Assembly: GCA_963712115.1 (NCBI GenBank) | Contig: CAVQGX010000014.1 | Coordinates: 1-64,000 of the forward strand | Direction: 5' to 3' | Length of the DNA: 64,000 nucleotides | From: an uncultured delta proteobacterium | Lineage (GTDB): Bacteria > Desulfobacterota > Syntrophobacteria > BM002 | In this document: positions 38,019 to 42,660 of the stretch, one piece after another | How positions within the stretch are numbered: position 1 is the first letter of the stretch | How the letters are laid out: each line of letters starts with the position of its first letter | Translations under genes and position numbers: made by a program | The notes under the pieces: generated by a model | Databases searched by the model: none | What the model saw: only the letters and a program-made list of their open reading frames with translations | What the model was told of the DNA's origin: nothing

Positions 38019-38372
38019 ATGCTAATGACTAATCGTCGTAGGGAACCAAGGTTTACCATGCGGTTTCCGGTGAGACTCTGCAGGGATCGATTGAACCTGT
38101 GGTTTGAGGGCACGAGTGTGAATATGAGCCAGATGGGGGCCTTTATCAGGACAGAAGACTGGAGCTCTTTCCAGGTTAACGACGAGGCAATCGTCACCTG
38201 TTTTCTCCCACCAGATTTTAGCGGACAGGATGAATTCATAGCCTTGCAAGGGGAGGCGACAATTCGGAGGCTTGATCCAGTGAATAAGTGTGTGGCTGTG
38301 GAGTTTGTGAAGAGTTTTAAGCAGTTTGAGAGGTGCGTTGACGAGTCAACGCGCATGGGGAATGGAGCATAG
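38019..38372 (+). CDS. PilZ-domain protein
   Basis: RRREPR and NMSQMG c-di-GMP motifs. Confidence 0.85.
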   Translation: MLMTNRRREPRFTMRFPVRLCRDRLNLWFEGTSVNMSQMGAFIRTEDWSSFQVNDEAIVTCFLPPDFSGQDEFIALQGEATIRRLDPVNKCVAVEFVKSFKQFERCVDESTRMGNGA

Positions 38373-38598
38373 AGCATGGGGTTAAAAACATTACAGGCGC
38401 ATAATTCAAACTTTTTGGTGGATGAAGGGGGCACAAAACAATGGCAAAATTCAGATTTCAAGATCTACGAATCTGGCAGTTGGCAATTGAAATAGCTAAT
38501 GAACTATTTGATATTGCAGATGAGCTCGAAAGGAAAAAATTATACCGGTTTGCTGACCAGCTCAGAGGCTCCGGAATGTCTATGTCTAACAATACGCG

Positions 38599-38871
38599 GC
38601 CTGTGAAATAAAGAAATGTATTATGTTTACGTTCTAAAATCAGAGCGCGATGGTGGTTTTTACATCGGTTGTTCAAAAGACCTGAGGCAAAGGGTTGAGA
38701 ACCATAAAGCAGGAAGGGTGAAGTCGACGCAGAACAGACTCCCCATTGAGTTGGTTTACTATGAAGCGTGCCTGGACCGGAGCGATGCCTTTCGCAGAGA
38801 GAAGTATTTAAAAACTACTTATGGAAGAAGATACCTGCGAAACCGGCTGAAAGGATATTTCACAGGCTAAA
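38599..38871 (+). mobile_element. Mini-element: inverted repeats enclosing a GIY-YIG gene
   Basis: Perfect 12-bp IR GCCTGTGAAATA (38599..38610) / TATTTCACAGGC (38856..38867) within the four-helix-bundle gene. Confidence 0.75.
38616..38870 (+). CDS. Stand-alone GIY-YIG nuclease (UPF0213/SLX1-like)
   Basis: YYVYVL..FYIG.SKDL..R..H..G.VKST..R.P.ELVYYE..A..RE.YLK. Confidence 0.92.
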   Translation: MYYVYVLKSERDGGFYIGCSKDLRQRVENHKAGRVKSTQNRLPIELVYYEACLDRSDAFRREKYLKTTYGRRYLRNRLKGYFTG

Positions 38872-39158
38872 AAGGTTCAGGATCTTCATCAAAGAAGGAA
38901 TTCAGACGTTTCCTTAGCATCGCACGAAGGTCAACTTTCGAGAACGCTAATATTGTCATTCTATTGGAGATGAGAAAGCTTATAACCAGTAATACTTTGG
39001 ATTCTCTTCTAGATCGGCTCGACAGCCTGTGCCGACAAATTACTAGTTTCCAGAATTCGCTTTGACCTATCAGTCTTTCCCTATGCTCTATGCCCTCTGC
39101 CCTATGCCTCACCTACTGACTACTACATCCAACACCTCGCGCGTCTGAAGTATGGCCT

Positions 39159-40708
39159 ATGTATTTGTCACATTACAATTTAGCTGAGAAGCCGTTTCAG
39201 ATAAGTACTGATCCGAAGTTTCTCTGGCTGGGGGAGAAGCACAGGGAGGCTTTGGCGGTGCTGAAGTACGGCATTATCAACAACCAGGGCTTTGTCCTGC
39301 TCACCGGTGACGTGGGTACCGGCAAGACCACCCTGATCAATGCCCTGGTAAACAGCCTGGACAAAGACACCATTGTTGCGGTTGTGTCTGACCCGAAACT
39401 AGACAGGCTCGAGTTCTTTAACCTCATTGCCAAGGCTTTCAGATTCAAAAAATCATTCAAAGACAAGTTGGATTTCACCATCTATTTCAGCCAGTTTTTG
39501 AAAGCTGCATACAGAGCAAACAAAAAAGTGCTGCTGATTATAGACGAAGCACAGAACATTTCTTTGGATTTGCTGGAAGAGATTCGATTACTATCAAATA
39601 TAGAGATTCCAGAGAGAAAGCTCTTGAATATATTTTTCGTAGGGCAGAATGAATTCAATAATATCTTAATGCGAAACAAGAATGCAGGCCTCTAAGACAG
39701 AGAATTACAGTAACCTATAATATTGAACCTCTGACTGAGACCGAAACAGGAGAATACATTACACATCGATTAAAAGTTGCCGGGGCCACCAGTGAAATAT
39801 TCACTAAAGGGGCAATTGGAAAAGTATACTCCTTCTCCAAAGGTTACCCACGTCTGATCAACATTATGTGTGATCATGCCTTGCTGACTGGTTATGTTAA
39901 GGATCTTACGACAATCACACCTAAAACAATTAAGGAATGTACCAAGGAACTCAGACTTCCTGGTGAAATCAAATCCAGTAAGGCACAAAAAGTAAGACCC
40001 AAACAGAGAGAAGGGAAAATATTCGGGAAAAGAGCTATTCTTTATTCTTGCTTGCTCTTCCTTCTGATCCCTCTTTTTTACCCTCCTGTGTCAACTACAC
40101 TAAAAGGTTATCTCACCAATGTGATCAATTTCTACGACGAGTTATTTCAGCAGCTTGCCGGTCTGGCACACAGCTATAATGCCCAGGAGGTAGGAGTAAA
40201 GGAGTATGAGAGAGCAAGTCAAACTACCACTCCGTCGCTGAATCAATTAAGTAATACAGACAGCAAACCATCTTCCGATGATATTGTTAAAATAGATAAA
40301 TCTCCTGGTGACGAATCATCAAATCTAGGTGAACATAGCTTTAATCTAACTGATTGCCAGCTGACAATCCCATTTGGATACAATTCAAATGAAGTACCAG
40401 AAACTGCTTATGGTCCATTGGACAAATGCGCTTCGATGATGTTGCAGAACCCATCAATTGCCATGATTATCAAGGGCTACAGTGATGGCGCCGGCCCTTA
40501 TGCTTACAATAATAAGCTTTCAGAATTTCGCGCAAACATTGTGAAAAGTTATCTTGTCGGCCAAGGGATAAGCCCCAAGCGAATCAAGACTGTAGGTATG
40601 GGGGAGGAGAGTCCCTTGGAGTCCAACACTACGGCAGCGGGGCGGAGAGCCAATAGGAGAGTAGAAGCGGAGGTAGAGATCAGAGGTCAGAAGTCAGAGG
40701 TCAGATGA
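39159..40708 (+). CDS. ExeA/GspA-type AAA ATPase with C-terminal OmpA-like domain (frameshift near 39685)
   Basis: MYLSHYNL.EKPF, GDVGTGKT, IIDEAQ, GYPRLIN.MCD; GYSD..YNNKLSEFRA..GRRANRRVE. Confidence 0.88.
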
Positions 40709-42472: not shown

Positions 42473-42560
42473 ACCCTAATATTGCAAATCCAGACCGGCA
42501 AAACCCGCTGCGCGAGCCCTGTTGAATAAGGTTCCCTTCGGGAAATTCAACAGGGCTCGC
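42473..42560. repeat. Truncated CCCTAAT(A/G)TTGCA MITE end with an inserted CCTGTTGAAT/ATTCAACAGG hairpin
   Basis: Alignment to the 18700 and 45320 copies shows a 43-nt insert at about 42514..42556. Confidence 0.7.
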
Positions 42561-42660
42561 TGGTTCAGTTCAAAATAGGAGTTTTCTTGCATATATTCTC
42601 ATTCTTTTCGATGTGTTCAATAAACTCTAGGTTGTAATCTGTGAAAGGAGGCAGGATGCC

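Follow-up and report, generated by a model that had tools for sequence, protein, structure and literature searches.

How does a gene for one small nuclease come to lie inside another gene, closely framed by inverted repeats? The question is raised by a 64,000-nt stretch of DNA (contig CAVQGX010000014.1, positions 1-64,000, assembly GCA_963712115.1) from an uncultured delta proteobacterium (Syntrophobacteria; BM002), hereafter the window; the host genome, G000, comprises 4.9 Mb in 70 contigs. Here a gene of the 23S_rRNA_IVP family (hereafter IVP), four-helix-bundle proteins that include the Avd proteins of diversity-generating retroelements, is interrupted by a GIY-YIG nuclease gene placed between terminal inverted repeats. 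The DNA in question is a genuine insertion of a minimal, selfish repeat-nuclease-repeat cassette of ~273-277 bp, belonging to a large family that moves between genomes from repeat to repeat; on balance, we lean toward site-specific mobility driven by its own nuclease and translation coupled to the host gene. Autonomy of the element and a transposase role for the nuclease are the putative parts of this reading.

A nuclease cassette interrupts an IVP gene

The two arms of the terminal repeat, GCCTGTGAAATA and TATTTCACAGGC, are complementary at 12 of 12 positions and stand 245 nt apart (Table 1). The nuclease open reading frame (ORF) begins 5 nt 3' of the left arm, with its ATG at 38616, and ends on the TAA at 38868-38870. 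The frame of the N-terminal host half terminates within the left arm, 4 nt 5' of this ATG, and the host ORF is both split and frame-shifted. Its two halves match successive parts of the PF05635 profile: 38441-38608 matches positions 1-45 (expectation value (E) 8.2e-8; 32.9 bits, slightly below the cut-off of 33.8) and 38871-39062 matches positions 49-105 (E 2.3e-10; 41.1 bits). No direct repeat flanks the element on either side in a check for target duplication. An earlier sequence-only reading of this DNA had described perfect repeats, the ORF and the missing target duplication, and all of its coordinates were verified. The exact 12-mer is found at one place in the 4.9-Mb genome and its complement at two, and the number of repeat matches in the window with up to two mismatches is unremarkable (12, with 5.2 expected); the weight of the repeats lies in the comparison with relatives and not in the window count.

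Table 1. Coordinates of the cassette, its host gene and related features in the window
Feature	Position	Strand	Remarks
Host IVP gene, N-terminal half (23S_rRNA_IVP / Avd-like four-helix bundle)	38441..38594	+	PF05635; frame continues into the element
CGCG junction bases, ownership uncertain	38595..38598	+	Relatives have CTTG, extending the repeat
Left terminal inverted repeat, GCCTGTGAAATA	38599..38610	+	Carries the host-frame stop TAA (38609-38611); co-varies family-wide with the right arm
GIY-YIG nuclease ORF, 84 aa, sole gene of the element	38616..38870	+	PF01541, E 3.4e-15
Right terminal inverted repeat, TATTTCACAGGC	38856..38867	+	Encodes the last four nuclease residues, YFTG
TAAA tail (nuclease stop codon and one base)	38868..38871	+	In relatives TAA/CAA pairs with left-end TTG
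Host IVP gene, C-terminal half	38872..39065	+	Open from 38871, stop 39063-39065; nuclease ORF in the same frame
Gene-less intergenic mini-copy	42511-42561 (arms 42518-42527, 42545-42554)		GAGCCCTGTTGAAT, 17-nt loop with CCCTTCGGG hairpin, ATTCAACAGGGCTC
Left heptamer arm framing the whole IVP gene	38353..38381		7-nt-repeat inverted arm, GCATGGG-type
Right heptamer arm framing the IVP gene	39079..39108		CCCTATG x 4.3

Intact alleles and the insertion junctions

The genome holds 12 further IVP matches besides the window host gene. Intact host alleles, which the sequence-only reading had proposed to look for, were found in two of these paralogues (on contigs C59 and C18) and in five genomes of the same genus (G010, G015, G016, G019 and G021). 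They are mostly 86-89% identical to the window halves, with wider or lower values in G016 (74-93%) and G019 (78-79%), and the N-terminal half of the window gene is near-identical to the C59 paralogue and the same-genus alleles as far as AACAATA. The intact motif reads AAC AAT ATT TCG GAA GGC (N N I S E G), with synonymous variants, in the context AACAATATTTCGGAAGGC. In the window, AACAATA survives to the left and AAGGT to the right; 277 nt (38595-38871) thus replace 6 nt, and the net change in length shifts the host frame by one. As 277 nt stand for 6 nt, both junctions are uncertain by a few bases; the sequence-only reading was right to call the boundary uncertain, and its confinement of that uncertainty to 1-2 nt on the left did not hold.

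Junctions of the intact type also occur in metagenomes, here represented by assembled contigs (not raw reads) placed at 85% likeness, with a highest share of sampled words per run of 0.23. In four runs from sediment or estuary, contigs connect 38592/38594 with 38872/38877/38883 through 8-17 bases, as in TTTCGGAGGGC, which is the intact motif. Depth in these runs is 0-4.0 in the element interior and 5-199 in the IVP flanks, and one 277-nt contig matches 38631-38907 with 3 differences.

In a further genome, G017, the gene downstream (AAA_22) is 82% identical, and no IVP match (E < 0.01) was found in the ~640 nt upstream of it (locus L100), where synteny was not established. Three IVP paralogues of the host genome contain a single in-frame stop: C59:7316-7630 (TGA), which is the closest intact-length paralogue of the window host gene, C3:31748-32062 (TAG) and C42:159487-159780 (TAA).

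Terminal repeats co-vary across a widespread family

A word-indexed search with an E threshold of 1e-5 returned 1,111 proteins; among the best 120, a length of exactly 84 aa predominates, and many come from contigs no longer than a few kb. When 1.84 billion representatives were searched with a profile, 3,361 clusters were recovered with E of 1e-10 or lower, 29 of them with E of 1e-30 or lower. Scanning GTDB species genomes gave 460 tblastn-confirmed places, and the best 80 of these (L019-L098) serve for the family analyses below. They represent Verrucomicrobiota, many phyla of the candidate phyla radiation (CPR), Nitrospirota, Thermodesulfobacteriota, Bacteroidota, Chloroflexota, Ignavibacteriota, Cloacimonadota and others.

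At the 79 loci with enough flank, a free search paired the upstream 70 nt with the 3' end of the gene and took the best inverted repeat. A clear pair stands at the expected places in 76 of them, in answer to a check of homologues that the sequence-only reading had proposed; the other three are L051 and L083, in which the top score went to an A+T run, and the ambiguous L072. Scores average 13.0 for a locus's own pair; pairing across loci (300 pairs) gives 8.2, and left flanks after shuffling give 6.8. The arms change jointly from locus to locus (GTGAAATA/TATTTCAC, GTTAAATA/TATTTAAC, GTTAGATA/TATCTAAC), sometimes to strongly divergent forms (CTAGGGCCGTTCCAACTT in L030, ATCCCGTTAGAGCTA in L087). 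In L025 they read ATGAAATA/TATTTCAT, hence a protein ending in YFMG. Where the protein tail differs (L027, L043, L069 and others) the right arm lies directly 3' of the stop codon, and the arm is therefore no by-product of the protein sequence.

Covariation was scored on a 16-pair terminal stem fixed by columns in a MAFFT alignment of 78 elements, whose rows are related to each other by kinship. Of its 1,232 cells, 81.9% are paired (74.2% after shuffling; none of 500 shuffles as high), and cells changed on both sides number 129 against 63.1 +/- 9.3 in shuffles (0/500). The covariation score is 0.307, compared with 0.181 when shuffled and 0.05-0.11 in slid controls. At least 10 of the 12 core pairs are formed in 55 of the 78 rows and all 12 in 30, and most of the low-pairing rows are those with the right arm after the stop codon, which is misaligned. 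Own-pair scores and covariation, each set against shuffles, rule out a chance origin of the repeats.

Nuclease lineages go with particular targets

IVP halves, detected with a hidden Markov model built from 11 IVP paralogues of the host genome, adjoin the element in 28 of the 80 loci, on both sides in 20 and always on the element's strand. Among the 24 N-terminal halves that reach profile position 39, 22 end at positions 41-47; the exceptions are L098 (39) and L045 (66). The L045 gene is broken at 66|67 rather than at ~46 (see also the C-terminal halves of L023 and L025), so that the insertion site in IVP is not absolutely fixed. The junctions follow the pattern NI(A) + (C)TG/TTG + repeat ... 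repeat + CAA/TAA(A) + GAAGG, and (C)TTG precedes GCCTGTGAA in L019, L022, L028, L034, L061 and L071. With these TTG/CAA-type bases included, the repeat is often ~15 nt long, and many loci preserve the host motif on either side.

A second target is the YhcG/DUF1016 PD-(D/E)xK nuclease gene, in which eight loci (L021, L024, L029, L031, L038, L048, L058 and L064) carry the element at the GQM..Y|VN motif. Here the host frame reads through the entire element in the +1 frame without a stop, adding ~95 residues (PVRY...SHGVN). Short gene-less copies in YhcG genes are likewise read through in frame. PF06250 falls into 2-3 stretches. A quick maximum-likelihood tree was built from few columns (the first 78 of the alignment), and most of its forks are unresolved; host context changes 6 times on it, compared with 30.9 times for shuffled labels (0/200 as low). 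The YhcG-hosted group forms a single clade (support 94, including L046), and phyla are mixed inside clades. Nuclease lineages thus go with particular targets, namely IVP, YhcG/DUF1016 and other CPR sites, and the occurrence of homologues at unrelated loci, another check proposed in the sequence-only reading, is borne out across many phyla.

No universal target motif emerges: across 78 elements, the information content of the 12 bases flanking the repeats never exceeds 0.21 bit per position. Small GIY-YIG genes ending directly against the start of a tRNA gene were seen at L057:590-805 and, just after the gene, at L083.

The target pattern also bears on the main rival, a classical free-standing homing endonuclease gene, which would make a double-strand break at the NI(S/A)EG site of intact IVP and depend for its copying entirely on homologous recombination with an allele already occupied, the repeats being incidental or regulatory. 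Such a gene would be expected at the same codon-level site, in the same orientation, in diverged IVP genes, without target duplication and with its clade coupled to its target, as is the case here; the multi-copy IVP genes (12 other matches in G000) supply homologous templates, and GIY-YIG is a known homing-endonuclease fold, with I-TevI among the low-ranking matches. The conservation and joint change of the repeats in nearly all relatives nevertheless speak against it, as do an 84-aa protein without a DNA-binding domain and a host gene that is destroyed, with no intron or intein and a blank Rfam result over 38200-39300. Given also the shared and gene-less copies described below, we consider homing a rather unlikely explanation of the element as a whole, although it may operate among IVP paralogues.

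The repeat-bounded block and its gene-less copies

We examined what is shared between pairs of loci. L036 and L037, from two CPR genomes, are ~94% identical from TTTACCCTGTTAAATAA (TTTACCC...) to TTATTTAACAGGGT(T/G)AA, and the shared block, whose only gene is the GIY-YIG ORF, stops at the outer repeat ends. Outside the repeats identity is 26-51% per 60-nt window over 900 nt on each side. Elements at these two loci share no flanks, in disagreement with copying by homology alone. Three IVP pairs (L079/L084, L022/L028 and L034/L071) also show higher identity within the element than within the IVP halves, which may reflect either co-conversion or faster decay of the broken host gene. A second short block, 91-100% identical, lies ~420-480 nt upstream of the element in L035 and L039, from two CPR genomes, whose flanks are otherwise unrelated; it may be another small mobile repeat.

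Eight gene-less mini-copies of the repeat family stand at unrelated places in the host genome, one of them in the window (Table 1) and the others at C1:33379, C2:177, C12:38030, C32:123173, C42:44729, C51:12606 and C69:13087. GCCCTGT[TG][AG]AAT-type arms surround 17-31 nt that form one or two small hairpins, in most copies two, with TTCG or GAAG loops; a control with reversed arms found none among 243 arms. The arms match the repeat types of other nuclease lineages, for which the host genome has no nuclease gene. Mini-copies at unrelated intergenic places are a further argument against homing. In L054 and L058, complete hairpins (right arm + TGAA/TTCA + left arm, e.g. TATCTCATGGGGTGAACCCCGTGAGATA) stand on both sides of the gene and may be the abutted ends of neighboring or former copies. 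A short GIY-YIG match (profile positions 1-32 only) in an 83-codon open frame at C20:248326-248415 of the host genome may be a remnant of another cassette. A plasmid vehicle was rejected, with one weak match in 72,556 plasmids.

The element could instead be an old insertion, no longer or never mobile by itself and carried along with the IVP unit, with repeats that act at the RNA level as a stem in processing, stability or the control of translation. The single nuclease copy in the host genome would fit, and so would the presence of the repeat stem in the RNA minimum-energy and centroid folds, the mobile appearance of the IVP unit with its own heptamer arms, and the comparison of the window with L019, where identity within the element (56-78%) does not exceed that within the IVP N-terminal half (70-78%). 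Against this stand the intact alleles of the same genus, the rarity of the element interior relative to the IVP flanks in the four metagenomes, and the presence of the family in unrelated targets. We regard immobility as improbable and retain the mobile cassette as our working interpretation.

A compact nuclease with probable host-coupled translation

PF01541 spans residues 1-72 of the nuclease, which is a single compact domain, and an AlphaFold model confidently adopts the GIY-YIG fold (predicted local distance difference test score 93). Invariant residues in 78 sequences include Y3, Y5, G18, H30, R61 and E62, with Y16 and R26 conserved in at least 90%. The nearest solved relative is the UPF0213 protein BH0048 (1zg2; profile E 4.5e-9, top Foldseek match 1.1e-4), followed by At-HIGLE and Slx1, with I-TevI and UvrC ranked lower. 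The label "UPF0213/SLX1-like" given in the sequence-only reading is thereby upheld. PHROGs returned no family and NCBIfam nothing above its cut-off. A group I or II intron or another known RNA was rejected, as Rfam returned no family over 38200-39300 at E up to 1.

The same reading had proposed translational coupling to the host gene. In agreement with this, 19 of 24 IVP-hosted relatives have a host-frame stop at -12..+8 nt relative to the nuclease start (+4 in the window), and overlapping GTGA or ATGA occurs at the nuclease start in L042, L066 and L071. Because the host frame terminates within the left repeat, a few bases short of the ATG, the nuclease is probably translated by termination-reinitiation, without a promoter of its own.

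Relation to known systems

The closest published system, likened here by architecture and repeat layout, is that of the Ssn nucleases. SsnA of Neisseria meningitidis is described as a 94-aa single-domain GIY-YIG protein (CDD cd10448) that binds the hairpin repeat NTS in single-stranded DNA and cuts upstream (Chenal, 2025; PMC11893778). Its homologues are flanked by lineage-specific hairpins (SRM), the authors remark on the layout of repeat, gene and repeat as resembling an insertion sequence (IS), and the enzymes cut even when the hairpin halves are on separate oligonucleotides (PMC11893778). Like Ssn proteins (~85-95 aa), the window protein is an 84-aa single-domain GIY-YIG nuclease; its gene is bracketed by lineage-specific cognate palindromic repeats, with gene-less repeats elsewhere in the genome, and L054 and L058 are flanked by complete hairpins. 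Unlike in Ssn, there is usually one arm per end, the stem closes over the whole gene, the right arm is coding, the element lies inside genes at a fixed codon, and the repeat copies number 8 rather than hundreds. The SRM consensus was absent within 5 kb on either side and from all 80 loci, with 38 matches genome-wide (7.8 per Mb), a density resembling that of genomes for which no ssnA homologue is recorded (e.g. 5.2-17.4 per Mb, PMC11893778). Homologues of cd10448 type are marked in Prosthecobacter and Algoriphagus in Supplementary Data 4 of that article (PMC11893778), and two relatives found here (L058 and L068) come from these genera, a hint only of Ssn membership.

With the homing endonucleases I-TevI and T4 Seg the element shares GIY-YIG catalytic residues, a conserved site, intact alleles, absence of duplication and a lineage that tracks its target. 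I-TevI has ~245 aa, whereas the window nuclease has 84 and no separate DNA-binding domain. Terminal inverted repeats, a broken host gene, the absence of an intron or intein and the occurrence in unrelated flanks also set it apart from homing endonucleases. Hairpin-forming ends, lack of duplication, short palindromic non-autonomous copies and presumed single-strand intermediates recall IS200/IS605 and REP/RAYT; unlike IS200/IS605, the element contains no HUH Y1 transposase, and its ends are mutually complementary terminal repeats rather than subterminal hairpins. Rickettsia palindromic elements are gene-less, in-frame palindromic insertions in protein genes. The YhcG/DUF1016 relatives and mini-copies are read through in the host frame in the same manner, whereas our element carries a gene and the host frame in the window is stopped.

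Small GIY-YIG ORFs have also been described in non-intron insertions of CPR rRNA genes, where 23S_rRNA_IVP ORFs occur in the same kind of insertion and the GIY-YIG ORFs were judged to lie outside spread by homing (Tsurumaki, 2024; PMC11270868). Many of the relatives found here are likewise CPR; unlike the present family, those insertions are presented with no mention of inverted repeats (0 occurrences) or protein-gene targets in the part of the article covered here (PMC11270868). The sequence-only reading had proposed an undescribed class of elements, which is too strong given the Ssn systems and these rRNA insertions (PMC11893778; PMC11270868). A survey of literature on GIY-YIG insertions, transposases, IVP/Avd and palindromic elements, with most subscription journals outside its coverage, found no description of a repeat-bounded GIY-YIG cassette splitting IVP or YhcG genes.

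How the cassette may move

In the mechanism that we propose for the mobile cassette, its own nuclease would act as the mobility enzyme. By analogy with the Ssn enzymes, it may recognize the stem formed by the two repeats, or the abutted ends, in single-stranded DNA and would then cut at a lineage-specific site, after which host repair or replication would copy the cassette in without target duplication. Homology-directed repair, i.e. homing, could add spread among the multi-copy IVP genes.

Several observations weigh against this proposal. GIY-YIG nucleases hydrolyze DNA without a covalent intermediate, so that the nuclease alone cannot integrate DNA and host functions would be needed. A genome search found the nuclease in single copy in G000, with no direct sign of movement here, and the 2-9 nuclease matches in each of five other genomes are mutually diverged and not identical, with nothing to indicate a recent burst. 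Loss of ~6 host bases makes the insertion imprecise, and the outermost bases of the window copy, CGCG and TAAA, are unpaired. The whole element, as DNA or RNA, folds no more stably than shuffled sequences (z ~ -0.8), and covariation of the two ends would equally be expected if one protein bound the same sequence at each. Many loci come from metagenome bins, and some of the cross-phylum cases could be binning errors. The metagenome contigs, in which intact relatives are common and the element is rare, do not demonstrate excision.

Finally, Y1 transposase genes (PF01797) were found in all five genomes checked, four of them in G000, so that mobilization in trans has to be weighed. The GIY-YIG gene would then be a passenger or accessory of a unit moved by, for example, a Y1 HUH transposase (IS200/IS605 or RAYT) acting on the hairpin ends. 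Such ends and the absence of target duplication are typical of IS200/IS605, as also noted in the discussion of PMC11893778. Y1_Tnp is common anyway (6 of 14 control genomes), however, and a passenger is hard to reconcile with a GIY-YIG ORF that is the sole gene of the conserved block and intact, with invariant catalytic residues and with the right repeat built into its last codons, or with repeat sequences that follow the nuclease lineage. We therefore give mobilization in trans little credence and keep to a cassette moved by its own nuclease.

We tentatively raise a stronger claim, which we hold as possible though doubtful: a new class of transposable element in prokaryotes, with a size (<300 bp) about as small as that of any autonomous one, in which a lone GIY-YIG nuclease, and not a DDE, HUH, DEDD, serine or tyrosine enzyme, would act on its own repeat stem in single-stranded DNA, insert without duplication at lineage-specific sites in conserved genes and spawn gene-less hairpin mini-copies. 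If the nuclease does drive movement, this would add a catalytic class to bacterial transposition and set a lower size limit for an autonomous element, and thousands of small "UPF0213-like" GIY-YIG genes (3,361 clusters with E of 1e-10 or lower) would gain a biological role. The family connects the Ssn nucleases and their hairpin repeats with the GIY-YIG insertions of non-intron type in CPR rRNA genes and with read-through palindromic insertions in protein genes. Each lineage combines a compact nuclease with its own short putative recognition stem and target, which is of practical interest for single-strand DNA tools. For annotation, the family explains split or "pseudogene" Avd-like and YhcG genes and the assembly breaks at these places.

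An apparent second repeat-bounded unit around the host gene

The IVP gene as a whole is framed by a second pair of inverted arms built of 7-nt repeats (Table 1), complementary at 79% over 29 nt (38353-38381 vs 39079-39107). Short matches to these heptamer arms recur many times in every genome of the genus, and metagenome contigs join 38376/38382 to 39074-39086, skipping the entire IVP gene. The cassette therefore looks nested in a larger repeat-bounded unit.

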